Source: Candidatus Falkowbacteria bacterium
GTDB lineage: Bacteria; Patescibacteriota; Patescibacteriia; Patescibacteriales; UBA12465
DNA: 64,000 nucleotides
NCBI GenBank assembly: GCA_016432645.1
Contig: CP066698.1
Span: 389,062 to 453,061, forward strand
Reading direction: 5' to 3'
The first letter of the stretch is position 1, and each line of letters starts with the position of its first letter. The notes under the pieces are model-generated. The model did not search any database. It had not been told where the DNA came from and was given only the letters and a program-made list of their open reading frames with translations. Shown one piece after another: positions 3,788-63,473 of this stretch. The position numbers and the translations under genes were made by a program.

Positions 3788-4960
3788 TTACTTTTTTGTT
3801 GTTTTATTAATTAAATTATCTTTAGAACAAGTGGCAAACACTTTAAGTTCAGTACCTTTACCCCTCTCCGGGCTAAAAAAAACCAAACTTTCTTGTTTTT
3901 GCGAAGCGTCATACTTAGCAACTAAAATGGTTGCCATAATATTACGAACTTCGCCAGGCTTTAAAGTCAGGCTATCAGGAATAATTTTAACCCAATCACT
4001 CGAGCCAATTTTGACGCTCAAAGGCTGATAATCAATATTGGTCAAGGTGATAGTCTTAGTTAGGCGCCCGCCATCAGGAATAAATAAATCTAAATTATTG
4101 CTTTTCAAACGCAAATATTCAAATTTACTATCATTAAGCGGCCTCTTTCTAACAACCGAAAATTTCTGAGCGACTCGTTCTTTCTTGGAACTGCTGCCAT
4201 AATTAAACGAAGCTTCAACAATATAGTCTCCAGCCGGCAATTGCCTGTTAAGCGCTCCGGTAAAATCGCGTATGTTACCGGGGAAAATAAAAGCGGCTTT
4301 AGTCGGGCTGCTTAAAGCATTAAGACTAAAGGTGCCATAATTTATTTTACCATCGACACTTCTGACAACAGCGTCGCCAGCAACATCCAAATGAATAAAG
4401 CTGGTGTTCTTGAAAGCAGCTTTAATCCCTACCAAGCTGTCAGTTTTTAGAACTTGCAAATCCAGAGCTTCGCCTTTTTTTTCATAGGTTCGCCCTGGGA
4501 CTTCCAAAATTACCACTACTGCCGGCCTGACCATCATTAAAAATTTAAGCTTGCGGCTTTTATCGTCAACGACGGTGTATTTACTGGGCTCCACCAATAT
4601 CACGGCATAATATTCTCCGGGCTGGGCATTTAGGGGGACGGAAATCTTAAATTTAACTTCCTTAGCTTGATCTTCAAACAAAATCAAATTTTTTTGTCCC
4701 ATCTCTATAAACTGAACCGCAGAATTTTTTCCGGGCACAGAGTCAAAAGAAAAAGCGCCGCCTCTATTCATTGAAAGATCAGAGGGATAAAGCACTAGAT
4801 CTTGGCTTTTGGCACCTTTGGAACCAAAAACTTTTAACGTAAACTCTTGGCTCGAACCGCGCGCAACTGATACATCATAACGCACTGGCGAAACTTTAAC
4901 TGCGTAAGCGCAACTCAAAAACAGGCTTAGCGCTAAACAAAGCAAAATTTTTCTTTTCAT
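3788..4960 (-). CDS. exported protein of three beta-sandwich (Ig/PapD-like) segments
   Basis: Signal peptide MKRKILLCLALSLFLSCAYA. Three ~110-130-aa segments with alternating-strand patterns ending in PGEYYAVILV, PAGDYIVEASF and PGEVRNIMATILV. The 17 nt before its ATG are identical to those before the secretin ATG. Confidence 0.75.
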   Translation of the reverse strand: MKRKILLCLALSLFLSCAYAVKVSPVRYDVSVARGSSQEFTLKVFGSKGAKSQDLVLYPSDLSMNRGGAFSFDSVPGKNSAVQFIEMGQKNLILFEDQAKEVKFKISVPLNAQPGEYYAVILVEPSKYTVVDDKSRKLKFLMMVRPAVVVILEVPGRTYEKKGEALDLQVLKTDSLVGIKAAFKNTSFIHLDVAGDAVVRSVDGKINYGTFSLNALSSPTKAAFIFPGNIRDFTGALNRQLPAGDYIVEASFNYGSSSKKERVAQKFSVVRKRPLNDSKFEYLRLKSNNLDLFIPDGGRLTKTITLTNIDYQPLSVKIGSSDWVKIIPDSLTLKPGEVRNIMATILVAKYDASQKQESLVFFSPERGKGTELKVFATCSKDNLINKTTKK

Positions 4961-4978
4961 TTCTTAATTTTTTGAGAT

Positions 4979-6638: not shown

Positions 6639-7370
6639 TTAAAGTTTAACGATTGAAGTAAATTCCGGGACATTGAGACTGGCACTGCCAATCAATAAGC
6701 CGTCAATATTTTTTTCTTGTAAAAACTGTGCGGCATTATTGCCATTGACGCTGCCACCATAAACGACTCTAGTTTTCTTCCCTAGAATCTTAACAATTTC
6801 GGCTTTTAAGAAAACGTGGATAGCCTCAGCCTCTACCGGAATTATCGGCTCACCGGTCCCAATCGCCCAAAGCGGCTCATAAGCAACAATTAACCCAGAA
6901 GAATTTTTGATATTTATTTCTTTTAAAGCACTTTTAATCTGAGCTAACAAAACTTTTTTAGTTTGCCCTAATTCTCTTTCATTCAGAGTTTCGCCCACGC
7001 AGACAATAGGAATTAATTTAGCCGCAATCGCTGATTTTACCTTAGCATTTATCAAATCAGAATCTTCTTTCAAAATTAACCGCCTTTCACTATGACCGAT
7101 AATCACATATTTAACACCGAGCTCATTTAAAGTTGCCGGCGAAGTTTCACCAGTTAAAGCGCCACGGTTTTTAAGCGCGCAATTTTGAGCGCCTAATAAC
7201 AAGTCGCCACCTTGCAAAATATCAGCAACGGGGGCGATAGCTAAAAATCCCGGGCAAATAACGGTATCGTTTTTAGGTTCTTTAATTTTTTTCTTCAACT
7301 CTTTAGCTAAAATCAAACTATCCTTAAAACTTAACTGCATTTTCCAGTTGGCAATAATAATTTTTTTCAT
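6639..7370 (-). CDS. tpiA: triosephosphate isomerase
   Basis: ANWKM, GHSERR and AYEPLWAIGTG motifs are intact. Start taken at Met12 (MKKIIIANWKM), 1 nt after the upstream gene's stop. Confidence 0.92.
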   Translation of the reverse strand: MKKIIIANWKMQLSFKDSLILAKELKKKIKEPKNDTVICPGFLAIAPVADILQGGDLLLGAQNCALKNRGALTGETSPATLNELGVKYVIIGHSERRLILKEDSDLINAKVKSAIAAKLIPIVCVGETLNERELGQTKKVLLAQIKSALKEINIKNSSGLIVAYEPLWAIGTGEPIIPVEAEAIHVFLKAEIVKILGKKTRVVYGGSVNGNNAAQFLQEKNIDGLLIGSASLNVPEFTSIVKL

Positions 7371-32257: not shown

Positions 32258-32329
32258 GGTCCCTTCGTCTAACGGTTAGGACGCCAGGTTCTCATCCTGG
32301 TAACAGGGGTTCGATTCCCCTAGGGACTA
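32258..32329 (+). tRNA. tRNA-Glu (anticodon CUC)
   Basis: GGTCCCT/AGGGACT acceptor (G1-U72), GTCT-AACGGTTA-GGAC D arm, CCAGG-TTCTCAT-CCTGG anticodon arm, AGGGG-TTCGATT-CCCCT T arm. 72 nt. Confidence 0.9.
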
Positions 32330-32340
32330 CGTAAATAAAA

Positions 32341-32367
32341 GAACGAGTATTAACTCGTTCTTTTATT
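32341..32367. terminator. bidirectional terminator after tRNA-Glu
   Basis: GAACGAGT-ATTA-ACTCGTTC stem with A-run/T-run flanks. Confidence 0.7.
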
Positions 32368-32370
32368 TAT

Positions 32371-32547
32371 GAAGCCGAAGGCTGGGGAATCGAACAAGTT
32401 GGAAGTGAGCAAGGACTGAGGTCGGAAGACCGAAGGACGAAGCGAACATCTGGCGATATGCCGGGGGCATATCGGACGCCAACTCAGGACAAGTGAACGA
32501 GCCGCATTATGACGGCGAGTGAGCGCGATAATTCCCCTAGGGAATAC
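32371..32547 (+). ncRNA. unclassified GC-rich structured element, copy A (homolog of 63290-63462 on the opposite strand)
   Basis: Flanked by terminator hairpins. Closing helix GGGGAAT(32384-32390)/ATTCCCC(32531-32537). Inner helices GTTGG/CCAAC, GGTC-GGAA-GACC, CGATATGCC-GGG-GGCATATCG and GCCG/CGGC. Conserved junctions are shared with copy B. Transcription direction was not determined. Confidence 0.5.
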
Positions 32548-32552
32548 ATATA

Positions 32553-32586
32553 AAAAAGAATATCTCGTAGAGGTGTTCTTTTTTAT
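32553..32586 (+). terminator. rho-independent terminator after element A
   Basis: AGAATATCTC-GTAG-GAGGTGTTCT stem (two G-U pairs) followed by T6. Confidence 0.55.
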
Positions 32587-32678: not shown

Positions 32679-33920
32679 ATGCCAACAATTCAACACTTTG
32701 TCAGTCAAATTAAACAATACGGCAACAAGCACAAAGCCTTGTATCTATTGTCCTTAATGATATTATTTTGGGCAACCTATGACGGAATAATCACTTTTAT
32801 TTCACCATTAATTATGACGGCGAGCGGGCTCTCGGGAACGCAAATGGGCATTATTATCGGCACCTCCTCAATCAGCGGCGCTTTTTTTGATTTTATCGCC
32901 TGCCGCATTTTTAAAAATTTATTTTTCAGAAGAATGTTCATAATAATGTTCATTCTCTGCTTCTTTTATCCGCTGATTCTCTTTAAGGCTAACAGTTTTT
33001 TAATTTATCTGATAGCCATGGCTATGTGGGGAATTTATTATGACCTTAAAAACTTTGCCGAATTTGATTTTGTCGCTCGCCATATAGAACCCAAAGAACA
33101 TACCTCCAGTTTTGGAATAATCCAAGTTTTTACATCCTTAGGATATTTAATCGCACCAATAATCGCCGGACTAGCTATCGGAGAAGCGGTCGATTGGAAA
33201 CCATTTTTAATTAGCTGGATATTCTTAGGGATCTCCATAATCTTTTTCATCTATTTAGTAATCCTAACCAAAAAATACAAAAATAAAACGAATAGCTCTA
33301 AAGATATACCAAAACAGGTCAGCTTTTTAAAGGAAATAAACCTGTGGGAAAAAATCGGCCGGACAATTTTACCGGTGCTAATTTTAACTCTGGTTCTTAA
33401 TTTTATTGATGCCTTTTTCTGGACTATCGGGCCATTATTAGCTGAGAGCTTTAGAGGCGCCCCGCAATTTTCCGGCTTCTTTATGACTGCCTATTCTCTG
33501 CCCATCCTCTTAGCTGGCTGGTTTGTCGGCTCCATAACCGCCAAGTATGGAAAAAAGAAAACTGCCTTTATCAGCTTACTCCTGGGATCTATATTATTAA
33601 GCACTCTATTTTTATTTAAAAATTTTTTACCAATAATCGGAGTGATTTTCTTATCTTCAGTTTTAATGTCTTTGGCCTGGCCGGCAATCAACGGGGCTTA
33701 CGCCGACTATATTCATGAGACCAAGCGTGCTGCCAAAGAAATTTCCGGGCTGCAAGACTTGTTCACTAATATCGGTTATATTATCGGACCGATATTTGCC
33801 GGGATTCTATTTGACGCGATTGGCGGGGCAGCCGCCTTCTCAATGCTGGGATTGTTTGGAGTAATAATTGCCATCGTCTTAATAACTATTACCCCCAAAC
33901 ATATTGATATTAAATTATAG
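32679..33920 (+). CDS. MFS-type transporter
   Basis: About 12 hydrophobic segments in a 6+6 arrangement with a basic central loop (TKKYKNKTNSSKD). 413 aa. Confidence 0.75.
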   Translation: MPTIQHFVSQIKQYGNKHKALYLLSLMILFWATYDGIITFISPLIMTASGLSGTQMGIIIGTSSISGAFFDFIACRIFKNLFFRRMFIIMFILCFFYPLILFKANSFLIYLIAMAMWGIYYDLKNFAEFDFVARHIEPKEHTSSFGIIQVFTSLGYLIAPIIAGLAIGEAVDWKPFLISWIFLGISIIFFIYLVILTKKYKNKTNSSKDIPKQVSFLKEINLWEKIGRTILPVLILTLVLNFIDAFFWTIGPLLAESFRGAPQFSGFFMTAYSLPILLAGWFVGSITAKYGKKKTAFISLLLGSILLSTLFLFKNFLPIIGVIFLSSVLMSLAWPAINGAYADYIHETKRAAKEISGLQDLFTNIGYIIGPIFAGILFDAIGGAAAFSMLGLFGVIIAIVLITITPKHIDIKL

Positions 33921-36653: not shown

Positions 36654-39600
36654 TTATTGCTTAAGTTTAATTGGCGCCTTCCCCCATTGATAAAGGAGAA
36701 TAGAAAAATCTACTGAGTTAACCTGCTTGTCGTTATTAATATCAACGCAGACATTTTTAAACGGAGCGGTAGTTTTCCAGAAGGCCAGCATAATTGAGAA
36801 ATCAACTGAATTCACTTTTCCGTCATGATTAAAATCGGCACCGATACAAGTCGTTTCCGGAGTTTCAACAACTGGAGGCAAAACTGGGACTGCCCCGCCG
36901 CCACCGCCGCCACCGCCGCCGCTAGGAGGTACCACTACTGTTTCTGAGACAACGGTAAATGACTGCATAGCTCTTGAGGAGTCGGAGCCAAATTGAACAT
37001 TCAAATGGAACCAATAATTGCCGGCGGCTGAAATAATAGAATTTAAAGTAGTATCAAAATTAGCATGAGGATTAATTAAAATCGCGGCTGTTGAGCTAAA
37101 AATATCATCGCCGCCACCACACAGATTAGTGTCAGAATTAGTAACGCACCAATTGTATTGATATTCGTAAGCGGTTGAGCTGTCATTAGTTATTCTGATG
37201 GCCGTCGCAATGCTCGGCGAGGTTAAATCACTAAAGCTCTGAATCAATACTTGAGCCGGAGAGCCTGGCGTTCCGCTCACTGCAGTGGAAGCCGCTCCGC
37301 GGCCAACAATATTTTTAGCGGAAACACGGAAATCGTAAGAATTATCATTCGCTAAGCTGGTTACTGTGGTCGCGGGAGTTGTGCTAATTCCATCGTTAAA
37401 TATTGACCAAACGCCGCCGCTAGTTAATTTATATTCAACCACATAGTCAGTGATGGAAGAGCCGCCATCAAATACCGGCGCTGACCAGGAAAGATCAACG
37501 CTACTATTTTGAATTATGACCGCCAAGTTAGTCGGAGCATTAGGAATACTGGCCGGAGTAATTGAATTACTAGTTCCTGATGGCGAACCAGTACCAACCG
37601 CATTGGTCGCGGTAACGGTAAAGGTATAAGTTGTACCATTTGTTAACCCGTTTATAGTTAAAAATGGAGAGCTGCTAGTAGCCACGAACCCGCCGACATT
37701 AGAGGAGACCGTATAATTAGTAATGACTGAACCGCCATTATCCGCTGGCGCTGACCAGGAAAGGCTAGCGCTGCCATCGCCGATAGTAGCTGCTAAATTA
37801 GTCGGGGCGCCAGGTACAGTCGCTGGAGTTGCGCTATTAGCACCCCCAATTGAACTTGGGCCGACTCCGATAGCATTAGTCGCCGTGACTGTAAAAGTAT
37901 AAGTTACGCCGTTTGTTAAACCAGTGATAGTAATCGGAGATGAGCCGCCAGTAGCGGTGTGTCCGGCGCTTGAGGTAACCGTATAACTAGTGATGGCAGA
38001 ACCGCCATTGTTAACTGGGGCGTCAAAAGTTATTGTAGCTTCCCCGTTGCCTCTTATGGCCGTTACATTTGTTGGAGCATCCGGGACGTTGGCCGGAGTA
38101 ATTGAATTACTAGTTCCTGATAAAGAACTGGTTCCAATTTCATTAGTTGCAGTCACGGTAAAAGTATAAGTTGTACCGTTGGTTAGGCCGGTGATAGTGA
38201 TCGGAGAAGAACCGCCGGTAGCCGTAAAGCCACCAACATTGGAAGTGACAGTATAACTAGTGATGACGGAACCACCGTTATTAACTGGGGGCGTAAAAGT
38301 AATTGTGGCCTCCCCGTTGCCTCTTACGGCTGTTACATTTGTTGGAGCATCTGGGACGTTGGCCGGAGTAGCCGAATTACTAGTGCCTGACGGCGTGCTA
38401 GTACCGATAGCATTGGTCGCGGTCACGGTAAAAGTATAAGTTGTGCCGTTAGTTAAGCCGGTGATAGTGATCGGAGAAGAACCGCCGGTAGCACTAAAGC
38501 CGCCGATATTAGAAGTAACGGTATAACTAGTAATGGCAGAACCGCCGTTATTAATTGGGGCATCAAAAGTTATAGTCGCTTCTCCGTTACCTCTGGTCAC
38601 AACCACGTTAGTAGGAGCATCCGGAACATTAGCCGCCACAATTGGACTGCTAACAGTTGACGGCGTGCTAGTACCGATAGCATTGGTCGCGGTCACGGTA
38701 AAAGTATAAGTTGTGCCGTTAGTTAAGCCAGTGATAGTAATCGGAGAGGAACCGCCGGTAGCACTAAAGACGCCGATATTAGAAGTAACGGTATAACTAG
38801 TGATGGGAGAACCTCCATTATTAACTGGTGGGCTGAAAGTAATTGTGGCCTCGCCATTACCCCGAGTCACAATAACATTGGTTGGGGCATCTGGGGCTGT
38901 AGCTGGAGTAACTGAATTGCTTGTAGCCGATGAAGCGCTGGTTCCAATCGCGTTAGTTGCCGTGACCGTGAAAGTATAAGTTGTACCATTTATTAGACCA
39001 GTAATAGTAATTGGAGACGAACCGCCGGTAGCCGTAAAGCCGCCGACATTGGAAGCGACAGTATAACTAGTGATGGAGGAACCACCGTTATTAACTGGGG
39101 ATGTAAAAGTAATTGTGGCTTCCCCGTTGCCCTGAACGGCAACCACATTAGTCGGTGCATCTGGAACATTTGCTGGAACAATAGAGTTGCTAGTGCCTGA
39201 TGGCGTACTAGTGCCGATGGCATTGGTCGCGGTCACGGTAAAAGTATAAGTTGTGCCGTTAGTTAGGCCGGTGATAGTGATCGGAGAAGAGCCGCCGGTA
39301 GCACTAAAGCCGCCGACATTGGAAGTGACAGTATAACTAGTGATGGGAGAACCACCATTATTAACTGGGGGCGTAAAAGTTATGGTAGCCTCACCATTAC
39401 CTCTGGTAGCTACAACATTGGTTGGCGCATCTGGAGTGGTAGCAGGAGTTATTTCAGCTGAAGTTCCTGACGACAAGCTATTACCAATCGCGTTAGTTGC
39501 TATAACTGTGAAAGTATATCTGGTGCCGTTTGTTAAACCGGTGATGGTAATTGGGGAGTCGGCACTAGTTGCACTGAAACCGCCAACATTAGAAGTCACG

Positions 39601-42600
39601 GTGTAACTAATAATACTTGAACCGCCATTGGAAGCTGAAGCTGTAAAACTAATTGTGGCCTCGCCATTGCCACGAGTCACAACGACATTAGTCGGCGCAT
39701 CTGGGACTGTGGCCGGAGTAACCGAGTTGCTGGTTCCTGACGGGACGCTAGATCCAACTGCATTGTTGGCTGTGACTGTAAAAGTATACGTTGTGCCATT
39801 TGCTAGACCGGTGATAGTAATCGGAGAGGAACCGCCGCTCGCAGTTTGGCCGCCGCTAGAAGTGACAGTGTAATTAATAATTGCTGAACCGCCGTTGTTA
39901 ACTGGGGGCGTAAAGGTTATAGTTGCTTCACCATTTCCACGAGTGGCAACGACATTAGTCGGCGCATCTGGGGTGGTGGCAGGAGTAACAGAGTTGCTAG
40001 TAGCTGATGAAGCGCTAGTTCCAATCGCATTAGTCGCAGTCACGGTAAAAGTATAACTAGTTCCGTTTGTTAAGCCGGTGATGGTAATCGGAGAGGAACC
40101 GCCGCTCGCAGTTTGGCCGCCGCTAGAAGTGACAGTGTAATTAATAATTGCTGAACCGCCGTTGTTAACTGGGGGCGTAAAGGTTATAGTTGCTTCACCA
40201 TTTCCACGAGTGGCAACAACATTAGTCGGTGCATCTGGGGTGGTGGCAGGAGTAACGGAATTACTAACGCTTGATTGTACGCTAGTCCCAATCGCATTTG
40301 TCGCTGTAACCGTAAAAGTATAAGTCGTACCATTTGTTAAACCGGTAATGGTGATTGGGGAGCCAGCGCTAGTAGCGCTAAAACCACCGACATTAGAAGT
40401 GGCGGTGTAAATAGTAATTACTGAACCGCCATTATTAATTGGGGCGTCAAAAGTTATGGTAGCTTCCCCATCATTTCTAACAGCTATTACATTTGTCGGC
40501 GCGTCTGGAACTGTCGCCGGAATGACTGTACTACTAACACTTGATTGTACACTAGTTCCAATAGAATTTGTTGCTGTAACGGTGAAAGTATAAATTGTGC
40601 CATTTGTTAAACCAGTAACAGTGATTGGTGAACTCGCCCCACTGACGCTAAAGCCGCCAACATTGGAGGTAACAGTATAGCTAGTGATGGCGGAACCGCC
40701 GTTGTTAACTGGTGGACTGAAAGTAATTGTGGCCTCACCATTACCCCGAGTCACGACTACGTTAGTAGGAGCATCTGGAACTGTAGCTGGAGTAACTGAA
40801 TTACTTGTGGCCGATGAAGCACTAGTTCCAATCGCGTTAGTTGCCGTGACCGTGAAAGTATAAGTTGTGCCGTTAGTTAAGCCGGTGATAGTAATTGGGG
40901 ACGAACCGCCGGTGGCGGTGTGTCCGTCGTTTGAGGTAACCGTATAACTAGTAATTATAGAACCGCCGCTGGAGACCGGAGCCGTAAAACTAATTGTCGC
41001 TTCACCATTACCCCTCGTCGCAGTTATATTTGTTGGAGCATCTGGAACTGTAGCTGGAGTAATTGAATTACTTGTGGCCGATGAAGCACTAGCCCCAATC
41101 GCATTAGTCGCGGTCACGGTAAAAGTATAACTAGTTCCGTTTGTTAGGCCAGTGATGGTAATTGGAGACGAACCGCCGCTCGCAGTTTGTCCACCGCTAG
41201 AAGTAACTGTGTAACTAATAACTGCTGAACCACCGTTATTAACTGGGACGTCAAAAGTTATAGTGGCTTCACTATTACCTCTGGTAGCTAAAACATTAGT
41301 CGGTGCATCCGGGGCGGTGGCAGGAGTAACAGAGTTGCTAGTAGCTGATGAAGCGCTAGTTCCAATCACATTAGTCGCAGTCACGGTAAAAGTATAACTA
41401 GTTCCGTTTGTTAAGCCGGTGATGGTAATCGGAGAGGAACCGCCGCTCGCAGTTTGGCCGCCGCTAGAAGTGACGGTGTAATTAATAATTGCTGAACCGC
41501 CGTTGTTAACTGGGGCTGTAAAAGTAATTGTCGCTTCGCCATTGCCTCTGGTTGCTAAGATACTTGTTGGCGCATCTGGAACACTGGAAGGAGTGATTGA
41601 ATTACTGGTTCCTGACGGCGTGCTAGTTCCAATGGCATTTGTAGCAGTGACTACAAAAGTATAATTTATACCGTTAGTTAAACCGGTGATAGTAATCGGA
41701 GAACCAGCACTAGTAGCACTGAAACCGCCGACATTAGAAGTGGCAGTGTAACTAGTAATTGCTGAACCACCGTTATTAACTGGAGCGTCAAAAGTTATTG
41801 TAGCTTCGCCATCATTTCTAACAGCTACTACATTTGTCGGCGCGTCCGGAACCGTGGCCGGAGTAATAGAATTACTAGTAGCTGACGGCGTGCTAGTACC
41901 AATAGCATTAGTCGCCGTGACTGTAAAAGTATAAGTTACGCCATTTGTTAAACCGCTAATACTAATTGGCGAAGAACCGCCAGTAGCTGTATGCCCGCCA
42001 TTTGAAGTAACTGTATAACTAATAATATTTGAACCGCCGTTGTTAACTGGTGGCGTAAAAGTAATTGTCGCTTCGCCATTTCCTCTGGTGGCAACTACAT
42101 TGGTAGGAACATCAGGAACTGTGGCCGGGGTAACCGAGTTACTAGTTCCTGATAGCGTACTAGTGCCGATAGCATTAGTTGCGGTCACGGTAAAAGTATA
42201 ACTAGTTCCATTTGTTAGACCAGTTATGGTAATTGGTGAGCTTGCGCCACTCGCAGTTTGGCCGCCACTAGAAGTTACTGTGTAACTAGTGATAGCGGAG
42301 CCGCCGTTGTTAACCGGGGGTGTAAAGGTTATAGTTGCTTCGCCATTTCCTCTCGTGGCAATTACATTGGTAGGAGCATCAGGAACTGTGGCCGGGGTAA
42401 CCGAGTTACTAGTTCCTGACGGGGCGCTAGACCCAACTGCATTGTTGGCGGTGACTGTAAAAGTATAACTTAAACCGTTAGTTAAACCAATGAAAGTAAC
42501 TGGTGAGGAGCCGCTAACAACTGTCTGGCCGCCGACACTAGAAGTAACTGTATAACTAATAATATTTGAACCGCCATTATTAACCGGCGGAGTAAAAGTA

Positions 42601-45600
42601 ATAACAGCTTCCCCATTTCCTCTGGTGGCAACTATATTAGTGGGGGCATCAGGAACACTGGCTGGAATAATGGAATTACTAATAGTAGAAATCGTACTGG
42701 TTCCAATCGCATTTGTAGCAGTAACCGTAAAAGTATAAGTTGTGCCATTTGTTAAACCAGTGATAGTAATTGGAGAGGAGCCGCCACTCGCAGTCTGGCC
42801 GCCACTAGAAGTGACTGTGTAACTAGTGATGGAGGAACCACCGTTATTAACTGGGGGCGTAAAGGTTATAGTTGCTTCGCCATTTCTTGGAGCGGCAGTA
42901 ATACTTGTGGGTGCATCTGGAGTGGTAGCAGGAATAACAGAATTACTAGTTCCTGATGATAAACTTGTCCCGATAGCGTTAGCCGCCGTGACTGTAAAAG
43001 TATAAGTTGTGCCATTTGTTAAACCAGTGATAGTAATTGGTGAAGAACCGCCGCTTGCAGTCTGGCCGCCGCTGGAAGTAACAGTGTAATTAGTAATTGT
43101 TGAGCCGCCGTTGTTAACCGGGGGCGTAAAAGTAATTGTCGCTTCCCCATTTCCTCTTGTGGCAACTATATTAGTGGGGGCATCAGGAACACTGGCCGGA
43201 GTTATTTCATTAGAAGTAATTGAAGAAGTGCTTGTGCCAATCGCATTTGTCGCCGTAACTGTAAAAGTATAGGTTGTTCCATTTGTTAGACCAGTAATGG
43301 TAATTGGTGAGCTTGCGCCACTCGCAGTTTGGCCGCCGCTGGAAGTAACAGTATAACTAATAACTGCTGAACCGCCGTTGTTAACTGGGGGTGTAAAGGT
43401 TATAGTTGCCTCTCCATCATTTCTAACAGCAACTATATTTGTCGGAGCGTCCGGAACTGTGGCCGGAGTAATTGAATTGCTAGTGGCCGATGGTGTGCTC
43501 GTGCCGATGGCATTGGTCGCCGTGACCGTGAAAGTGTAAGTTACGCCGTTGGTTAAACCGGTGATAGTAATCGGAGAAGAGCCGCCGCTCGCAGTTTGAC
43601 CACCGCTAGAAGTAACTGTGTAACTAATAACTGCTGAACCGCCGTTATTAACTGGGGGCGTAAAAGTAATTGTCGCTTCGCCATTGCCTCTTAAGGCTGT
43701 AACATCGGTTGGTGAATCTGGAACTGTCGCCGGAGTAATTGAATTGCTAGTAGCTGATGGCGTGCTCGTGCCGATGGCATTGGTCGCCGTGACTGTGAAA
43801 GTGTAAGTTACGCCATTTGTTAAACCAGTGATAGTAATCGGAGAGGAGCCGCCACTCGCAGTTTGGCCGCCGCTGGAAGTGACTGTGTAACTGATAACTG
43901 CGGAGCCACCATTATTAACTGGCGGAGTAAAAGTTATGGTAGCTTCACCATTGCCTCTGGCCGCCACTACATTGGTTGGCGCATCTGGAGTAGTAGCGGG
44001 AGTAATAGAATTACTAGCTGCTGACGGAGCGCTATTTCCAACTGCATTATTAGCGGTAACCGTAAAAGTATAAGCTGTTCCGTTATTTAGACCAGTAATT
44101 ATAATTGGTGAAGAACCGCTAGTAGCAGTATGCCCGCCGCTAGAAGTGACTGTGTAACTGATAACTGCGGAGCCGCCATTATTAACTGGAGCGGTAAAAG
44201 TAATTGTCGCTTCACCATTTCCTCGTACCGCCGTAACATCGGTTGGCGAATTAGGAACACTCGCCGGGGTAACTGAATTACTGGTTCCCGATGCCGTACT
44301 TGTTCCCGTGCTGTTAGTGGCGGTAACCGTAAAAGTGTAAGTTGTACCATTTATTAAGCCGGTAATGGTAATCGGTGAGGCACCACCAGTCGCAGTCTGA
44401 CCGCCACTTGAGGTCACGGTATAAATAGTAATTTCTGAACCGCCATTATTAACTGGCGGAGTAAAAGTAATAGTTGCTTCCCCGTTACCACGAACAGCCA
44501 CAACATTAGTTGGTGCATCGGGAGCAACTTGATAATTAAAAATTGGATAAGTCTCATCCTCGGTAATTTTCCAAACTAGAGAAGAAAAGTCCCAACCAGT
44601 GAAGGTGGCTTGTTGTTCCATTTGACTAGTTGTTTTACCGGTCATTCCCGCCGGATCAGTTCCATTGCCAACACCGTCTCCAGCCGCAATCCCGGAAGTA
44701 TTAGTATCCCAATATGTAGAGACATAAGTTCCGCCGGTTGTATTAACAACACCGCCTACGTATTGTACGGCTGCGCTACCAGTTGCCCCGGTGCCACCAT
44801 TTGTACCACCAGTACCGCCTACTCCAGCAACACCACCAGCGCCACCAGTAGCACCAGCGGTTTTAGTCCCGGACGGAACTCCGGTTGAATAAGCATTAGT
44901 AATGGTGGCGCTATTACTAGATAAAAGACCGCCGATATAAACACTTCCGCCAGCGCCGCCAGCGCCGCCGTTAACACCATTGCCATTAACGCCCGGGTTC
45001 CCTCCTCCGGCCGCACCGCCATTACCACCATTTCCGCCTTGCCCACCATTACCAGGATTTCCGGCCACAGCCGTAATATTTCCTTTTGAATAAGCATTAA
45101 TAATTGCTCCTGTATTTTGTCCAACTAAACCGCCACCATATGTATGTCCGCCCACTCCGCCATTTCCGCCTAATGCACCATTGGTACCATTACCACCATT
45201 AACTGCCCCCGAGCCGCCGACGCCGCCATTTCCGCCTTTACCGCCAATTGCTCCACTCGCACCATTTCCGCCAGTCATAGTTACATTACCCGAAGAATAA
45301 CTAGTATTAAAACTGCCTGATGTTAAATTAGAGCCAATAAATCCACCAGCATAACTTACTCCGCCTGCGCCACCAGCGCCACCGGCTACAGCCGCACCAC
45401 CAAGACCACCGGCTAAAGTTCCACCATTACCGCCAGTTCCCGCTGAACCAGCTAAACCAGCCGCACCACCATTACCACCAGTGGTAGTAACATTGCCCGA
45501 TGACCAAGAATACTGAATTAAACCAGCCGTATTATTTTGTCCAGCAAAACCACCGGCATATAAAACGCCACCAGCACCACCGGCTGCTGTTGCTCCTTCG

Positions 45601-48600
45601 GCACCACCAACTCCACCAGCACCACTGGCGCCACCATTTCCGCCAGCACCACCAATGCCACCGGCACCGCCAACTCCGCCAGTGCCACCAAATATTGCGA
45701 CATCGCCTAAAGAATAATTTGTATAAATAGTGCCTAAATTATAGCCAGCAAATCCGCCGCCATAAATAGTACTACCTGTTGCTCCCACCGTTCTAGCGCC
45801 AGCAGCCCCTCCAGTTCCACCAATTCCAGTTGTCGTTCCGTCACCTCCAACACCACCATTTCCGCCCATTCCGCCAGTGCCGCCAGTACCACCATTTAAA
45901 GTAACGTTACCACTAGCCGATGAATCTTTAATATTCCTAGTTGTATTATTATAACCAGTAAAACCACCTCCATAAACAGCTCCCCCTGCTCCAGCCGCGC
46001 CAGCGCCTCCGCCTACTCCACCATTAGCGCCATTAGTAATACCCACAAAACCGTTAGCTCCATTACCGCCGGTACCGCCGGTACCGCCGGTACCAGCAGT
46101 TCCAATTACGTTACTAGTTGAATATGAAAAAAATAAAACTGTCCCATCATTATAACCAATAAGTCCACCAATATATAAAGCTCCAGAAGCCCCGGCTGCG
46201 CCACCAAGCGCACCAGCGCCGCCGGCACCGACACTGCCCGGCAAACCGCCATTCCCGCCAACACCGCCGTTACCGCCATTGCCGCTAGTACCAGTAACTG
46301 AAGTTCCATTAGAATAACTAGTCATGACTGTGTTTAGGGCATTAAGATTATTACCAATTAATCCGCCAATATAAACAGCTCCCCCTGCCCCTCCAGCACC
46401 ACCAGCACCACCGGTTCCACCAATATGATTACCGACGCCAAGAGAACCGTCACCACCGGCTCCGCCAGTATTACCATTGGCTCCATTCCCAGATAAAGCG
46501 TTAACATTACCAGAAGAATAGGCGTTTAAAACAACACCAATTGTAGAATTATTAGCGGCTAAGCCACCAGCATAACTGGCTCCACCAGCCGCCCCGGCTC
46601 CCCCAGCGCCGCCAGTCGCCGCCGTAGAACCAGAGATATTACTACTAGCACCGCCATTACCGCCTACTCCTGGAGTACCGGTTGAGCCGCCAGTCGAACT
46701 AACATTTCCAGTCGCATAAGATACACCGCCAATAATGCCAGTATTTGATCCGATTAATCCGCCAGCATAGCTAGCGCCGCCAATGCCGGTTGCACCACCA
46801 GCACCACCGGCACCACCAACAGCGCCAGCGCCACCATCTGCGCCGTTAACTCCCGTTGCTCCATTGCCACTAACTCCACCAATAGCATTTACTGCTTCAT
46901 TAGAATAACTGGTGGTAATAAAAATACTGCCTGATGATTGTCCAACCAAACCGCCGGCATAAGCAGCGCCGCCAGCGCCGCCATTTCCACCAGCACCAAC
47001 CGCTGCTCCGGCCGCACCTGATCCGCTAGTTCCCTGGTTACCTGCACTTCTACCAATACCGCCGACTCCTCCAGTAGCAGTTACTGTCCCGCCAGTAGAA
47101 TACGAAGTTAGATATCGGCTTCCTCCAGTAGTTACACTACCAAAGCCTAATAGACCACCGGCGTCAGCTTCGCCACCAGCACCACCAATTCCGCCAGCAC
47201 CACCAGCGCCGCCGATAGTATTTGTGGCGCCATTAGCGCCATTTCCACCAATATTTCCAGTACTGCCAACTCCGCCGACACTGCTAGTATCTCCGGTGGC
47301 ATATGAATTAATAATATCGCTAAGACCAGTAGTAATTGCATTATAGCCAATTAATCCCCCGGCATAAGCAGCACCGCCGGCAACAGCCGCCACTGCGCCC
47401 CCGCCGGCGCCGCCGGCAACAGTCGTTCTTGAAGCTCCGCCATTACCAGATGTTCCAGCAATCCCAGAATTTCCTCCAGTTGCTAAAACATCACCAGTCG
47501 CAGAAGTATTTAAAAAATTATTTGTTCCCGTTGTAAAACTACTATAACCAACTAAACCACCGACATAAGCGGCGCCACCAGCACCAGCGGCACCACCTAG
47601 AGCTCCAGCTGATCCGGCATGAGTTGCTAGCCCGGTTGAACCATCGCCGCCGTTACCGCCAAGTCCGCCGTTACCGCCCAGTCCGCCAGTACCGCTTACA
47701 TTTCCCGAAGCGCTTGATTCACCAATTCTAGCCTGATTAGTTCCAGTCATACGACCAACTAGGCCGCCAGCATAAATAGCACCACCAGCACCGCCAGCCG
47801 CTCCGGCACCGCCAGCCGCCGCCGTTAAAGTTGCCATTGTCGCTCCGGATGTCCCGCCGGTTCCACCGACACCGCCGTTACCGCCAGTTCCCGCGGTAAC
47901 TAAAATATTAACTGAAGAATAAGATGAGCCTTTAATAACACCGACATTATCACCAACTAAACCGCCGAAGGCTCTAATGCTTCCGGCTCCACCTACCCCA
48001 CCAATAGTTCCTGCACCGCCAATAAAAGTTCCTACACCTGTTCCCCCATTACCGCCAGCGCCTCCATTACCACCAGCAATTTCGGAACCAGAAATAGTAA
48101 TAGAATCTGAATAAGAAGAAGTAACAACGCCAGTTGCTGAAACGGCTCCCAATAAACCGCCAACGTAAGATCCACCACCAGCACCACCAACTCCACCAGC
48201 ACCACCGGCGCCACCGACTCCACCACCAACTAAACCGGAACCTCCATGACCAGCGTTAGCGCCATTGCCAGGAGTTCCTCCATTAACAACAATATTCCCT
48301 TTCCCAGAAACCGCATCATAACTAGCATAGGAAGAAACAACATCAGAAGTAGTATAACCAGCTAAACCACCGGCATAAATAATACCGGAAGCGCCACCGG
48401 CACCACCGTTAGAACCCGCGGCCCCACGATTAACTGCTCCATCTTGACCGGCCGAACCATCTTGACCAGCGCCGCCAGTAATATTTAAAGATGTTTTAGA
48501 ATATGAATTTGTAGTAATAATCCCCGTAGTATAACCAACTAAACCGCCAACATATACACCTCCACCGGCACCGCCAGCACCGCCAGCGCCAGCAATCCCA

Positions 48601-51600
48601 GATAAGGCCGTACCAGTTCCAACTCCACCCAAACCACCCAAAGCCGAAGTCCCGCCAGCACCGCCAGTTGCCGTCACAATCCCAGTTTCAGCATAAGAAG
48701 TAGTAATTGTTCCTAAAGCATTTTGGCCAACCAAACCGCCGACTTGAACAGCTGCCGCGGCTGCACCACCACCAGCGCCGCCATTGCCGCCAGCGCCGCC
48801 AATTGCCCCAAGATGATTTGTTCCCGCGGAACCGTCGCCACTATTACCACCTATTCCGCCATTACCGCCATTACCGCCAACTGCCGTGACGTCTGATTTC
48901 GCATAAGAATTATTAACAATTGCTAAAGCAGTATTATTTAAACCAATTAAACCACCGACGTTTGTCGCTCCACTTACACCGCCGTTTGCCCCTAAGCCGC
49001 CAGCAGCAGAAGTAGAGCCAGTAATATTGCCGGATGCTCCAGCATTTCCACCATTGCCACCATTGCCAGCCTTACCGCCATTAGCAAAAACCAAACCGGT
49101 TATATGATAACTAGTTTGTACTGTACCGCTATTTTGTCCGATAAGTCCGCCGGTATTGCTAGCACCACCGGCAGCTCCGACAATTCCAGCACCGCCAATA
49201 CCACCAATAGCCCCAGAACCGCCAGCGCCACCATTGCCACCGTTACCACTATTTCCGCCAGCCCCCGCCGTACCGCTAACAGCCCCAGTTGAATAAGAAA
49301 TAATAATTTCTCCAGAAGTTACTAGACCAATCAAGCCGCCAGCATAAACAGTCCCACCCACGCCTCCAGCGCCACCATTTCCGCCGGCACCGCCAACCGC
49401 CGCATTACCGGTTCCCCCGTTTCCACCATTTCCAGCAACGCCGCCATAACCAGCAGTTAAAGTTACATTTCCGGTTGCATAATTACTATCAACATAAACC
49501 GTAGTATTAGTAAAACCAATTAAACCGCCGCCATATACTAAGCCGCCAGCACCGCCAGCACCACCAACACCGCCAGCACCGCCGGTCATAGATGTGGTAC
49601 CATTGCCACCAATTCCGCCATTACCGCCATTACCTCCTAATTGTCCAACAGCAAATACTGTTCCAGTCGCATATGAATCAATAACTGAAACTCCAGTACC
49701 AACAATATCACCGATCAATCCGCCAACATTTATCGAGTTAGCCTGAGCTGAGCTTCCGGCGCCGCCGGCGCCGCCATTACCAGCCGCAGCACCGACTCCG
49801 CCATCAGCCGCATTACCGCCAGATCCAGCCGTCCCACCAGTAACATTAACATTATTAGTAGAATATATTCTGTCAAATAAAACATCATTCAAAGAATTAT
49901 GGCCAATTGCTCCACCGGCAAAAATTGCCCCCGTCGTTCCACCAGTACCGCCAGTACCGCCAACACCATTTCTACCTCCAGTTCCCTTAGTTCCGCCTTC
50001 GCCAGCATTACCGCCGACGCCGCCGCCGCTTCCAGGAGTAACAGTAATTGTTCCCCCGATACTGCTGGAAAGAGAAATATTGCCATTACCTTGTCCGGCT
50101 AAACCGCCAATAAAAACGCTACCGCTAGAACCGCCAGCCCCACCGGTACCGCCAACGCCACCATTATGACCACCTGTTCCTAAAATTCCATTTCCACCAT
50201 TACCGCCAATACCGCCGCTTCCACCAGCTTTATTGCTAGCCGATAAGCTTCCAATTACCACTGAATTAACAATAACTCCCGCATTGTCACCGACTAAACC
50301 ACCAATATAAATTGCTCCGCCGGCACCGCCAATACCGCCATTTCCCGCTGTCGCTCCTGTACTTCCAGAAATATTGCCAGAAGCTCCGGCGTTACCACCA
50401 ACTCCACCATTACCAGCCGCACCACCATTTACCGTAATATCGGTGATGGTATATGTAATATCTTGAATAATGCCTAAATTATAAGCAGCAATTCCACCGC
50501 CAACCGCCAAACCGCCAGCTGCACCAGAACCACCAGTACCACCAGTACCACCAATCGCGCCAGCAGAACTGCCGCCATTTCCGCCATTTCCGCCAACGCC
50601 ACCAATTCCACCGACACCTCCAGTAGCAGTAATCGTGCCAGTATTATTTGGGGTACTAAGGGTTGTGCCTAATACGCCATTCCAGCCAACAACGCCACCA
50701 GAATAAGCAGCCCCTCCAACTCCACCATTTCCACCAGCTACGCCAGCTACGCCAGCAATACCAGGACCGCTAGCACCACCATTTCCGGCATTAGCACCAA
50801 CGCCGCCGATACCTCCAGTTGAAGAGGCATTACCAGTTGCATATGAGTGGGCGCCAATAATCGCAATATTATAACCAACTAAACTTCCGGCTACGGCCAT
50901 ACCCCCCACGCCGCCGTAACCGCCGGGGATGCCTGCCCCACCAGCAACCGCCCCAGTTGAACTACCGCCATTAGCACCAGCCGTACCATTAGCACCGGCG
51001 CCACCAATAGCGGTAGCATTTCCGGTCGCATATGAAGTATTTCTAATAACGCCATTAGTATTATTATAACCAACTAAGCCGCCGGCATAGGCCGCTCCTC
51101 CGATACGTAATAAAACACTGGCTGTAGCATTAGAACCGCTAGCGCCTCCGGTTGCACCAGTCGAACCGCTGCCGCCATCAGCACCCATGCCAACCATTCC
51201 GCCCGCTCCTCCGGTTGCTAAAACATTTCCCGTCGCATGCGAAGCATCAATAATACCATTATTAAGTCCCGCTAAACCGCCGCCATAGGCAATAGCACCG
51301 GCGCCGCCACCAGCACCGCCGGCACCGCCAACTGCTCTTGTTCCAGCTGCACCACCAGCACCGCCGGCACCAGAATTTCCCCCAATAACGACAACATCAA
51401 TATTGGCATTAGAATTGTCTTGAATTATACCAGCTAAATTATTCCCCACTAAGCCTCCAGCATGGCCGATGGCTCCCGCGCCACCAGAGCCACCGGAACC
51501 GCCAGTACCGCCAGTAGCTCCTGTTCCGCCGGCGCCGCCGGCGCCGCCGATAATTCCGTCGCCACCATTGCTGCCGGTAACAGTTACGGAGCCAAATTGA

Positions 51601-54600
51601 ATATCAGAATTAGTAATTGTTGAAGTATTAAGACCAGCAATTCCTCCTCCGTAAGCAACGGCTCCGGCTCCACCAGTACCGCCAGTCGCACCGGCGGCTC
51701 CAAGATGATTAACTCCACCGGCTGCTCCGTTGCCAGCTAACCCAGCCACACCGCCATTTTTCCCCGCTGAAGCGGTAGCGATAACGGTACTAGAAGCATA
51801 GGAATTAAAAATTGTATTAGTATTATTCCCTACCAAACCACCAGCATAAGCAATCGCGCCGGCGCCTCCAGTTCCACCATTGCCACCAGCGGCTGCTGTT
51901 CCTGTATTTACTGTTGCTGTAGTTGCCCCGCCATTACCACCAGCGCCAGCATTACCAGGGGTTCCTCCTAAAGCAGTAACATTTCCGCTAGCATACAAAG
52001 CTGTCGGCGAAGTAATAACGCCGGAACTATATCCAGTTAAACCGCCGGCGGTTGCTACGCCACCAGCGCCTCCATTACCACCGTTTGCTCCCGCGCCACC
52101 GATGGCATTTGTTCCGCCATTACCACCATTACCGCCCAAACCACCATCACCGCCAGTGCCGCCAGTCACAACAACATTTCCAGTAGCATAACTAGTAACG
52201 ATTGGACCAAGCGCATAATAACCGATTAAACCGCCACCAAAAGAAGCGCCTCCAGCACCGCCAGTAGAACCGGCTGCGCCAGCACCGCCAACCGTACTGG
52301 CCGCTCCATTACCGCCATTTGCGCCCGCGCCACCGGCACCGCCAGCGCCAGCATTAGCAACAACGTTTCCGTTAGCGTATGAAGTCACTATTTGTCCATT
52401 TAAATTATAACCTATTAAACCACCAACATAAGAAATTCCACCAGCTGCGCCAGCACTACCAATTACCCCAGCTAAACTAGTCCCACCATCACCGCCATTT
52501 GCACCGGCGCCACCCGCTCCTGAAGTTCCAGAAACATTACCAGATGAATAGTCGCTAGTAATTGTAGTTCCGGCATTATAACCAATTCCGCCACCGGCAT
52601 AAATAATCGCGCCAACAGCAGCTGTTCCGGCCGCGCCAGCTAAACCGCCGGTCCAATTCCCGCCGGTACCACCAGCTCCAGCGGCGCCACCAGCTCCAGC
52701 AGTTCCAGAAACGGTGCCGGTTGTATAATAACTACTATTAATTTGATAAGTATTATTTCCAGCAATCCCTCCAATATACAAAACTCCACCCGCACCGCCG
52801 CTTCCGCCAGCAGAACCAGCCAAACCAGTTAGACCCGCTACGCCAGTTGCACCGGCGCCACCGGCGCCACCGGTACCAGAAACTGAATTCTCTGAATACG
52901 ACAATTGAATTCCTCCAATATTACTACCGACTAAACCGCCTCCATAAGCTGAAACTGAATTAGCTGAACCGCCGGTTCCCGATAAACCGCCAGCTCCGCT
53001 TGCTCCAGAAGATCCCTTAACTCCACCTGAGCCGCCACTAGCTCCCGCTCCTCCAGTTCCGCCAATAACCGTTACCAATCCAGTAGTAGAATAGGAAGAA
53101 ACTATAAAACCAGAATTAAGCCCGGCCAAGCCACCAGCATAAGCACCGCCGCCAGCACCGCCAGCACCGCCAGCACCGCCAGCACCGCCCGTATGAGCCG
53201 TACCAGAAGCAGCACTACCGCCAGTGCCGCCAGCTTTTCCGGCTTGTCCAACTGAACCGGTAGCGGTTACTGCCCCAGTTGCATAGTTGGCGCCTGTTTC
53301 TCCAGTAATGACACCATCTGTATTATTTTGTCCAACTAAACCACCGGCATAAGCAACTGCCCCTGCGCCGCCAGCACCACCAGCACCACCGGTCGCTGCG
53401 GTTCCAGTTGTTGCCACGGCGCTAGCACCAGCAGCTGCGCCGACAGAACCGTTACCAGAAGTACCGCCAAAAGACTGTACAACACCAGTTGCATATGAAA
53501 CATTTTTTATAACCCCTAAATTATTTCCAATTAAACCGCCGGCATAACTTACACCACCAGCCGCGCCAGCACCGCCAGCACCGCCAGCACCGCCAATAGC
53601 CGCCCCACCGCCAGCACCGCCGGTCCCGGCATCTCCAGCCGAACCGCCGGTCCCGCCAGTTGCTGTTACATTACCAGTTGCGGATGAAGCAGAAATAATG
53701 CCGGAGTTAACCCAACCGACCAAACCGCCAACGTAAGCAACGCCGCCGGCGCCAGGAGCACCAACACCGCCGCCGGCGCCGCCAATTCCTGTTCCTAAAT
53801 TTGTTCCACCATTACCACCGCTTCCACTATTACCACCTGTGCCGCCAATACCAACGACGGTCGCCGAACTACCAACAGTATTAATTCCTCCTTGTTGAGA
53901 ATAACCGACTAAACCGCCAACATAGACAGTGCCTCCAATAGCAGCCGCATTAGAAACCGTGGTTCCGCCCGCGCCAGCAACTGTTGCCCCGCTAGTTGTA
54001 TTTCCGCCTAAACCGCCATTACCGGCATTACCGCCATTACCTCCGGTTCCCGTAACATTTCCCGAAATTGTAGTGTTAATAATCGCCCCAATGTTATATC
54101 CAACCAAACCGCCAATATACAAAGTGCTGCCAACTGTCCCCGCAGTACCAGTCCCACCATTTGTTGGTGTGGTCCCGGAAACGCCATCGGTTCCATTAGT
54201 ACCGGCAGTGCCCGGAGTACTAATGGCCGTAATAGAAACGTTGGCCAGGTTAACATTTTGAATTTGGCTGATAGAGTAACCAAAAAGACCAACATAATTT
54301 ATCGAAGTTGAATTAATATACAAGTTACTGATTGTATGATTATCACCATTAAAATCTCCACTGAAACTAGTAGTATTAGTTCCGACCGGGATAAAGCCTG
54401 TGCCAGCATTCCAATTAACTGTCGTCGCAGCATCAATATCACCATTTAGTTTATAGGAATTAGTTAACCCTGTTTTCATGCCTTGCAAGCCATAAACATC
54501 AAAAATCAAATAAGGGTCATCACTAATTCCCATTCCGGTATAACGCTTAAACAACCCGGCTGTCACCGAAAAACTTCCAGTAACCGAAAAAACATTTACC

Positions 54601-63280: not shown

Positions 63281-63289
63281 TGTCAATCT

Positions 63290-63462
63290 GCGGAGAGAGA
63301 GGGATTTATCGCGCTCGCTTTTCTTCCGAAAAGCTCACTTGTCCAGAGGCAGCGCTAAAGCATCCCCCGGATGCTTTAGCGACGCTCGTCTACACACTCG
63401 CCGCTCAGAAAAGTGGCTCGTGTTTGCCTCGCTTCTGCCTAGTTCGAATCCCTCCCATTTTC
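63290..63462 (-). ncRNA. unclassified GC-rich structured element, copy B (strand assigned by homology to copy A)
   Basis: Closing helix GAGGGATT/AATCCCTC (63447-63454 with 63299-63306). Inner helices GGCAG/CTGCC, a 13-bp hairpin CGCTAAAGCATCC-GGG-GGATGCTTTAGCG and CTTTTC-GGAA-GAAAAG. Junction sequences (ATTCGAAC, AAGYGAG.CAA, GGACAAGTGA, GAGCGCGATAA) are shared with copy A. Confidence 0.5.
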
Positions 63463-63473
63463 CAAATACAAAA

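Follow-up and report, generated by a model that had tools for sequence, protein, structure and literature searches.

What is the structured, GC-rich block that follows a tRNA-Glu gene in a genome of Candidatus Falkowbacteria bacterium, and why do both of its ends reproduce parts of that tRNA? The block lies in a stretch of 64,000 nucleotides (nt) of the NCBI GenBank assembly GCA_016432645.1 (contig CP066698.1, positions 389,062 to 453,061 of the forward strand), which as a whole is called the window here. It sits between tRNA-Glu(CTC) and a gene of the MFS family. An earlier inspection of the letters without database searches (the sequence-only reading) had described an insert of ~177 nt, for which it offered two readings that need not exclude each other: a miniature mobile element that targets tRNAs and a structured RNA derived from a tRNA. 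From a comparison with related loci we propose, with a probability of about 0.6, that the block belongs to a family of non-autonomous, non-coding integrative modules that are specific for the T-arm of tRNAs, lodge directly behind tRNA genes and are mobilised in trans. The family itself is uncatalogued, non-coding and present in multiple copies in Patescibacteria; we found no description of the element in Rfam or in the searchable literature.

The two ends are as the sequence-only reading had them (Table 1). Read as its reverse complement, GGGGAATCGAAC at the 5' end is identical to GTTCGATTCCCC in the T-arm (32309-32320); the window contains this sequence nowhere else in either orientation, and none of 100 shuffles gave a match. 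At the 3' end, ATTCCCCTAGGGAATAC agrees with the tRNA 3' end, ATTCCCCTAGGGACTAC, at 16 of 17 positions, with no other match in the window at up to two mismatches and, again, none in 100 shuffles. The segment copied in the element is the T-arm plus 3' end of tRNA-Glu (32309-32330). Within the 5' 12-mer, GGGGAAT pairs with 32531-32537 and TCGAAC is invariant in the family, as are GGACAAGTGA and GAGCGCGATAA further on; the right repeat contributes its first 7 nt to the closing helix P1, as the 3' strand, and leaves the other 10 nt as an unpaired tail. The fold of the + strand pairs both ends (-59.3 kcal/mol, z = -3.7; opposite strand, z = -2.25), so that the closing helix around a multi-hairpin core postulated earlier stands, and covariation agrees with it. 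The block is also GC-rich as described (~0.49-0.50, window mean 0.42), and it encodes no protein. Its extent had to be redrawn, from ~177 nt to a conserved core of ~155 nt, a small hairpin P0 in front of it and a whole inserted unit of ~215 nt that includes the hairpin T1. AT-rich, palindromic hairpins of the terminator type do flank the core on both sides, but their roles are the reverse of those first assigned: the upstream one belongs to the insert, and the downstream one is probably the original terminator of the tRNA. Neither of them (~32333-32368 and ~32552-32585) is called by a simple terminator scan that needs at least three G-C pairs.

Table 1. Positions of the tRNA gene, of the parts of the two copies in the window and of a repeated block at related loci. 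L numbers designate loci of the comparison; positions without an L number are those of the window.
Feature	Position	Strand	Description or evidence
tRNA-Glu(CTC), target gene, intact, without encoded CCA	32258-32330	+	ARAGORN; Rfam RF00005, 62.5 bits
X, left direct-repeat copy, tRNA positions ~58-73, ATTCCCCTAGGGACTAC	32314-32330	+	sequence
T1, AT-rich perfect palindrome AAATAAAAGAACGAG / CTCGTTCTTTTATTT, terminator-type hairpin, part of the inserted unit	32333-32368	+	sequence; empty/filled comparison (L038 vs L037, window vs L035)
P0, small hairpin AGCC-GAA-GGCT abutting the closing helix P1	32373-32383	+	fold; Glu-type members
5' strand of P1 and junction, GGGGAATCGAAC, antisense copy of T-arm positions 53-64	32384-32395	+	
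Copy A, structured core (P1; P2 enclosing P2a and P3; P4 with tandem G.A)	32384-32539	+	covariance model 156.6 bits, E = 4.7e-38
X', right direct-repeat copy, ATTCCCCTAGGGAATAC, 16/17 identical to X	32531-32547	+	
T2, terminator-type hairpin after the repeat, inferred original tRNA terminator displaced by the insertion	32552-32585	+	near-identical to the hairpin directly after tRNA-Glu in L035
Copy B tail, ATCCCTCTCTCTCCGCAG, tRNA-Ser 3'-end type	63288-63305	-	compare tRNA-Ser-linked L024, L025, L030
Copy B, second family member, no adjoining tRNA	63298-63453	-	covariance model 138.6 bits, E = 1.9e-33; fold z = -4.25
Copy B T1, AAAATAAAACAACCAAATTGGTTGTTTTATTTT	63468-63505	-	near-identical to T1 of Ser-type L009, L025, L028 in other genomes
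Decayed T-loop and 3'-end relic GTTCCAACTGCATCCCACTCTCCCCGCAC, upstream of the hairpin of copy B	63506-63534	-	
~73-nt block, L029	2681-2749; 5390-5464		
~73-nt block, L080	140-214; 1747-1818		
~73-nt block, L089	1851-1925; 4592-4654; 7718-7786		
~73-nt block, further loci	L002, L011, L021, L037, L042, L071, L094, L110		

Is the fold a property of this one locus or of a family? The consensus has three helical parts: P1, which closes the structure; P2, inside which lie the long hairpin P3 and a variable arm, P2a, that often ends in a cGGAAg loop; and the hairpin P4, with tandem G.A pairs at its base. The junction strands are invariant and rich in purines (UCGAAC-AR, GGACAAG and GAGCGCGAUAA); in the UCGAAC block, UCG is paired and AAC is unpaired. 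Compensatory changes are found at 24 of the 33 pairs in 30 copies. When 88 sequences are taken together, two-sided changes affect 29 of the 33 pairs, paired cells reach 93.4% as against 71.2% in shuffles, and the covariation score is 0.53, compared with 0.18 for shuffled alignments and at most 0.10 with slid partners. Mutual information over 82 sequences yields nested helices only, with no pseudoknot or tertiary covariation. Because a U.G pair is conserved in 63 of these 82 sequences and G.U pairs are frequent besides, the folded strand is the tRNA-sense strand. P0 is present in Glu-type members, where it covaries (other stems are CGGC/GCCG, TCGAC/GTCGA, CCGCC/GGCGG and CAGCC/GGCTG).

No catalogued RNA accounts for this structure. 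Searches of the window and eight related loci with Rfam 15 at gathering thresholds returned only tRNAs, and nothing plausible appeared over copy A or copy B at E <= 10; a known family, which might have explained the fold, does not do so. The U.G and G.U pairs on the sense strand, the weaker antisense fold and the lack of a CCA complement after the tail rule out an RNA of the antisense strand as well as a primer-binding site for the tRNA 3' end. ARAGORN finds no transfer-messenger RNA (tmRNA), permuted tmRNA or hidden tRNA at the element on either strand. Signal recognition particle RNA, 6S RNA, RNase P RNA and Y-RNA, which the GGAA loops and T-loop-like motifs had brought to mind, were dropped when no model hit was obtained. 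The earlier proposal of a mobile element and/or a tRNA-derived RNA is supported overall, except that no trace of a tRNA origin is seen in the core apart from its two ends.

A separate observation concerns P4 of copy A: the 14-mer ATTATGACGGCGAG (32506-32519, +) recurs exactly in the downstream MFS gene (32811-32824, +; E = 0.05 by blast within the window), which could be chance or a small sequence exchange.

The search for further copies, for which the sequence-only reading had proposed a covariance model, was rewarding. The family set, built by a covariance model on 30 copies and then a sequence profile, holds at least 141 copies in 133 Patescibacteria/Falkowbacteria loci, exactly two of them in the window. 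An exact pattern taken from the two 3' blocks retrieved 33 loci from genomes, nearly all of them metagenome-assembled genomes of Patescibacteria/Falkowbacteria and often with several loci per genome; a pattern of the same type retrieved 93 stretches from metagenomes. A viral origin was rejected, as the viral contigs of IMG/VR gave no hits. Copy B, the second copy noticed earlier, does exist in the window; it was first reached through a weak self-match. Copies A and B have in common GGGAWTCGAAC at the 5' end, GGACAAGTGA and GAGCGCGATAA, and their stems differ in sequence with pairing kept.

There is also a divergent sub-family, often the second unit of a tandem pair (L024 7091-7244; L029 5520-5623; L060 4878-5042 and 6320-6417; L063 1057-1172; L089 1982-2130). 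At the 5' end, many of its members replace GGGATTCGAAC by GGGATGAGAAC, which weakens the complementarity to the T-loop, and GAGGCG(G)AAA in place of GAGCGCGATAA at the 3' junction.

If the module is specific for tRNA genes, how does it relate to the particular tRNA beside it? A tRNA gene lies on the same strand 48-66 nt upstream of 66 copies, and eight amino-acid identities are represented: Glu (TTC and CTC anticodons, 23 copies), Ser (four anticodons, 20), Gln (TTG and CTG, 9), Trp (6), Gly (4), Cys (2), Ala (1) and Asp (1). The insertion after tRNA-Glu seen at first holds for this locus, but the element is not specific for tRNA-Glu, since its ends are adapted to no fewer than eight tRNA identities. 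What follows the invariant GATAA is, in 46 non-redundant cases, a copy of the 3' part of the local tRNA, with at least 14 nt matching in 38 of them; this tail begins at T-loop position 58/59, 15-16 nt short of the tRNA end, and in most cases runs precisely to the discriminator. The 5' 12-mer, for its part, complements positions 53-64 in the T-arm of that tRNA, with 10-12 of 12 Watson-Crick pairs and a perfect match in 13 loci, and it follows tRNA-specific variants (GAGGATTCGAAC pairs with GTTCGAATCCTC, and GGGAGTCGAAC with GTTCGACTCCC). Both ends copy the T-arm, antisense at the 5' side and sense at the 3' side; the closing helix therefore consists of an antisense and a sense copy of the T-arm, and the 10 free nt of the tail correspond to the 3' strand of the acceptor and the discriminator. 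Outside the repeat, GTTCG is the complement of CGAAC in the 12-mer. At L041 and L119, where tail and tRNA mismatch, the 5' strand still matches the tRNA; the tail of L119 is a hybrid joined in the C-run of the T-stem, and its 5' strand matches tRNA-Gly perfectly.

Some tails have peculiarities of their own. Those of the tRNA-Ser type at L005, L074 and L127 contain a GC-rich palindrome, GCCTGCC(TGCC)GGCAGGCAGGC, between the T-stem copy and the acceptor-strand copy. At L001 (~6900-6960), the tRNA-Glu upstream of the element seems to be without a D-arm and is not called by ARAGORN, and the tail TTCCCCCGGGGACCAC differs from this local tRNA-Glu at three positions, as if it came from another tRNA-Glu variant.

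Orthologous loci with and without the element bear on mobility. Six related loci share the gene order ClpB...PDF-VTT-fmt-tRNA-Glu(CTC), and the comparison with relatives for empty sites showed both states: the fmt-tRNA-Glu site is filled in the window, L035/L036 and L037, which makes four loci from four assemblies or samples with the window counted, and empty in three, L034, L038 and L039. L034 is the closest relative, with an Fmt protein 81% identical. The terminator that follows the tRNA at the empty site of L038 recurs in L037 after the repeat of the element, and because it does so the inserted unit can be delimited as its own terminator hairpin, P0, the core and the repeat, ~215 nt in all. 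T2 of the window is the first terminator of L035, where it directly follows the tRNA, and the core of L035 lies on the other side of that terminator; this arrangement fits turnover within small arrays. Exact tandem units, in which T1 is duplicated along with the core, occur at L006 and L112, and accretion in tandem at a single tRNA is seen at L004, L006, L024, L027, L060 and L112. The empty site of L038 also has a partial duplicate of the 5' part of the tRNA, GGTCCCTTCGTCTAACGATTGGACA, just upstream of the real tRNA (4925-4975).

Copies may also be separated by genes. The array of L027 reads tRNA-Trp, a copy, three open reading frames (ORFs), a 100%-identical copy 2.1 kb from the first, a nucleotidyltransferase-like ORF, a third copy and a type ISP restriction-modification gene; its three cargo ORFs are a leucine-rich-repeat lipoprotein and two ORFs without a family match, one of these two not scanned. 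Cargo in other arrays comprises a kinase, a glycosyltransferase and a NUDIX gene; NYN- and HD-domain genes; genes for a PEP-utiliser, an inositol monophosphatase, a radical-SAM protein and a polyprenyl synthase; and Fic genes. Fic/DOC-domain genes recur in the vicinity, with 6 of 138 non-redundant neighbouring proteins (for example L081 12488-13423 and L126 7090-8184), and the recurrent families among these 138 proteins are housekeeping or accessory. Neither the cargo ORFs nor the 138 neighbouring proteins include an integrase, a transposase or a reverse transcriptase, and no integrase-bearing full-length parent or parent insertion sequence (IS) was found in genomes, metagenomes or viral contigs.

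How would a module of this kind operate? A circular or excised unit might recombine with the tRNA gene within the common segment from T-loop to 3' end; one repeat would then complete the tRNA, and the other would land after the core, followed by the old terminator of the tRNA. The enzyme would come in trans, either from the host or from a helper element. With its antisense (53-64) and sense (58 onward) T-arm copies, P1 would provide a base-paired image of the target carried by the element. We take this image to be what determines specificity, whether it is presented by a guide-like RNA or by an att site of single-stranded DNA, folded in either case. The fold may thus work as guide RNA or as single-stranded DNA; a ribozyme is a further possibility.

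Much of this resembles the tRNA islands of tyrosine integrases (tycheposons, P4-like islands) and their integrase-less derivatives (CIMEs), which also insert into the 3' part of tRNA genes, leave the tRNA intact and have a partial-tRNA repeat at the far end, with stacked insertions, accessory cargo and decayed partial tRNAs scattered in the array. The module behaves like a minimal, att-bearing version of such an island. For tycheposons of Prochlorococcus it has been described that the tRNA stays intact, that part of it is repeated, that empty sites exist, and that insertions accrete in tandem and carry accessory genes (10.1101/2020.12.28.424599). Among the features by which integrative elements are recognised, the direct repeat of a tRNA 3' end beside an intact tRNA, a precise empty site at the orthologous locus and tandem accretion were all found, whereas a recombinase encoded by the element or nearby was absent from the cargo and the 138 neighbouring proteins. 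Unlike those islands, the element has no integrase in or near any copy, its minimal unit is only ~215 nt, its 155-nt fold covaries and includes an antisense T-arm, and a single family, by adapting its ends, serves eight or more tRNA identities. It is distinguished from known tRNA-targeting integrative elements by the absence of an integrase and by the folded core that carries the image of the target.

Several points weigh against a module mobilised in trans. No recombinase partner was found in the cargo and neighbouring proteins (whole genomes were not screened), nor a convincing promoter between T1 and the core. Excised circles or population-level excision junctions are not among the observations, and presence and absence at a site could in principle result from loss only. 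Cores behind different tRNAs (Gln and Ser, Ser and Gly) can be 97.4% identical, which might be taken as proof of fresh retargeting; we rejected this argument, as the alignments show locus-specific ends and a common interior. Locus-specific ends with exchanged interiors point to gene conversion between resident copies, and sequence comparison therefore indicates that the similarity of cores across tRNAs is at least partly due to gene conversion and not to fresh transposition. Finally, copies without a tRNA are mostly preceded by a decayed T-loop/3'-end relic, for which the proposal offers no explanation of origin.

Could the core instead be transcribed and programme its own insertion? As a tentative alternative, it would be a guide or bridge RNA whose 12-mer pairs with the sense strand of the tRNA gene across positions 57/58 and whose tail pairs with the antisense strand, thereby directing a recombinase or transposase encoded in trans; retargeting to another tRNA would then need changes in two short segments only. 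That both segments covary with the adjacent tRNA over eight identities speaks for it, as do the complementarity of CGAAC to GTTCG beyond the junction and outside the repeat, the unpaired AAC of UCGAAC, and the 5' strand of L119, which matches the tRNA and not its own hybrid tail. The GNRA-type loops, tandem G.A motifs and conserved U.G pair resemble features of RNA scaffolds, and the succession of a scaffold and a 3' target-identical tail recalls TnpB omega-RNAs. Yet a candidate effector gene lies beside none of the 141 copies, the interval from the unit's own hairpin to the core showed no promoter, P1 sequesters the 7 initial nt of the supposed guide, and the constancy of UCGAAC would be expected from the invariance of the T-loop alone if the 12-mer were merely a copy. 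A more extreme form of the idea, doubtful in our opinion, is that the 155-nt RNA is an RNA-programmed 'integron' at tRNA genes that has no enzyme gene, pairs with both DNA strands through the 12-mer and the tail, and directs or catalyses the insertion of itself and of cassettes.

Known RNA-guided systems and integrons help to place this idea. The element is like the bridge or seek RNAs of IS110/IS1111 and the omega-RNAs of TnpB/IscB in that it would, if expressed, be a structured non-coding RNA of ~150-180 nt with short target-matching segments. A target-identical 3' tail follows the scaffold, which may correspond to the arrangement of TnpB omega-RNA, where the guide is identical to a target next to a short motif; part of the tail of the element is paired within the scaffold, and its counterpart in the tRNA is preceded by the invariant T-loop. 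In contrast to bridge and seek RNAs, no DEDD recombinase gene accompanies the element in the cargo or among the 138 neighbouring proteins, and its target-matching segments are the strands of the closing helix and the 3' tail, not the two internal guide loops of a bridge RNA. Unlike omega-RNAs, it has no linked tnpB or iscB among those proteins and no hit to the HEARO or IS605-orfB RNAs of Rfam. With integron cassettes and their attC sites it has in common enzyme-free cassettes stacked at one anchor, a folded single-strand element bounding each, and the newest apparently nearest to the anchor. The anchor is, however, a tRNA gene and not an attI site beside intI, and no integrase was found. An attC site has R and L boxes, extrahelical bases and little sequence conservation. 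Compared with that bulged hairpin, the fold of the element is multi-branched, with long invariant blocks, GNRA-type loops and tandem G.A pairs, and its repeat is 16-17 nt of tRNA.

Alternatively, the element might not move at all. It could be a resident gene for a non-coding RNA that serves the neighbouring tRNA, as an antisense chaperone or decoy for the T-arm or as a donor or splint in the repair of tRNAs cut in the T-loop, its copy number differing through duplication and loss and its ends being kept matched by gene conversion with the tRNA. Strong purifying selection on structure, ends specific to the adjacent tRNA, the demonstrated gene conversion among copies and a 12-mer that would splint exactly both halves of a T-loop cut all suit such a role. 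We nevertheless hold it to be unlikely: the orthologous tRNA of the closest relative, L034, is without the element, the unit comes with a terminator of its own and forms exact tandem units, copies distant from tRNAs separate unrelated cassettes of accessory genes, and only some tRNAs per genome carry the element, those for Thr and Lys in the window being without it according to ARAGORN and a scan with the covariance model.

The catalytic possibility deserves separate mention. As an intron-like ribozyme, the core would use the 12-mer as an internal guide, with GGGGAAU pairing to a '3' exon' AUUCCCC and CGAAC to a '5' exon' GUUCG, and the RNA would catalyse joining or insertion at the T-loop; the order within the 12-mer is that of the P10 and then the P1 strands of group I introns, and the spare tRNA 3' end would make splicing unneeded for tRNA function. 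Such a reading does fit how far, and in what order, the 12-mer complements the two sides of the T-loop junction, the internal P1 would be a pre-formed P10-like helix, and the junctions hold many invariant unpaired purines. Group I introns are common in tRNAs of Patescibacteria, where they sit at anticodon-loop position 35/36 (PMC13011429), so that phylum and type of target agree. However, the element occupies a T-loop/3'-end site instead of the anticodon loop and leaves the tRNA uninterrupted; a strong terminator hairpin even separates the intact upstream tRNA from the core. No group I or group II hit was obtained at E <= 10 (RF00028 included), there is no pseudoknot or long-range covariation of the P3/P7 type, and the core ends in GATAA, without a terminal G. 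The 12-mer complements the T-arm on both sides of the repeat boundary, which could suit an internal guide. The nucleotide before the junction is A and not G, a putative 5' splice site is not marked by a G.U pair, and UCG is used in an internal helix as well. With 155 nt, moreover, the core is below the size of any known self-splicing core. We therefore consider a ribozyme very unlikely.

Least probable of all, indeed scarcely credible, is that the copies are inert scars, namely attR ends left to decay by larger islands or prophages that had an integrase, and without any function today. Islands such as tycheposons typically show partial-tRNA repeats and accretion in tandem beside tRNAs (10.1101/2020.12.28.424599), and decayed relics are present in the arrays. 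Yet 141 copies maintain a 33-pair structure through compensatory changes and keep long invariant blocks across distant genomes, as scars would not, and no full-length parent carrying an integrase is found in genomes, metagenomes or viral contigs.

Returning to the module mobilised in trans, which we prefer, one more class of elements invites comparison. Miniature inverted-repeat transposable elements and the REP, RUP and Correia elements are likewise small, non-coding, multi-copy and intergenic, with inverted-repeat ends. They differ from the present family, which is strictly specific for tRNA 3' ends, has a target-identical repeat of 16-17 nt and ends that change with the target, and for which no parent IS was found.

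Patescibacteria have tiny genomes with few recognisable mobile elements, and their exchange of accessory genes is poorly understood. The module marks points of insertion behind many tRNAs and separates cassettes of accessory or defence-type genes (restriction-modification, Fic, NYN, HD, glycosyltransferases), and it offers a concrete, testable handle on how the flexible islands of these bacteria are built. It also adds a well-supported family of structured RNAs, with more than 140 members, in a phylum that is under-represented in RNA databases. If the fold is the specificity element, it would be a new, compact case of site choice programmed by a nucleic acid, with two short reprogrammable segments of interest for genome engineering. 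Should the RNA-programmed alternative prove true, the element would build the flexible islands of ultra-small Patescibacteria genomes and be retargeted by a few base changes; if it acts on the tRNA itself, it would represent a new kind of tRNA-dedicated RNA.

Copy B illustrates the copies that have no tRNA beside them. Its tail and its T1 are of the tRNA-Ser type, and the window contains no tRNA-Ser. As in other tRNA-less copies, the decayed relic comes first and the unit's own hairpin follows. Just upstream of copy B, an ORF at 63556-63975 (-) matches the EutH ethanolamine-permease model over the C-terminal third of that model alone (228-350 of 351) and may be the remnant of a truncated gene that abuts the element.

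In front of Glu-type copies that lack a tRNA stands a repeated block, ~73 nt long, whose end reads GGACTAC or (A/G)GACTAC, like the 3' end of tRNA-Glu (Table 1). The block is poor in G on the strand of the element; the substitution pattern of its opposite strand looks protein-coding (VVLKSDISQNFDGIIGEIEKWAEIL, then a stop), with no start codon. It occurs with and without a structured element downstream, as if it substituted for the tRNA-Glu target. We considered a decayed tRNA-Glu as its origin, and set this aside as weakly supported, the similarity being marginal (2-3 standard deviations above shuffles).

Elsewhere in the window, a giant ORF of 6437 amino acids occupies 36654-55967 (-), and part of it stands out from the rest of the window by a GC content of 0.47-0.61 and a strong negative GC skew.

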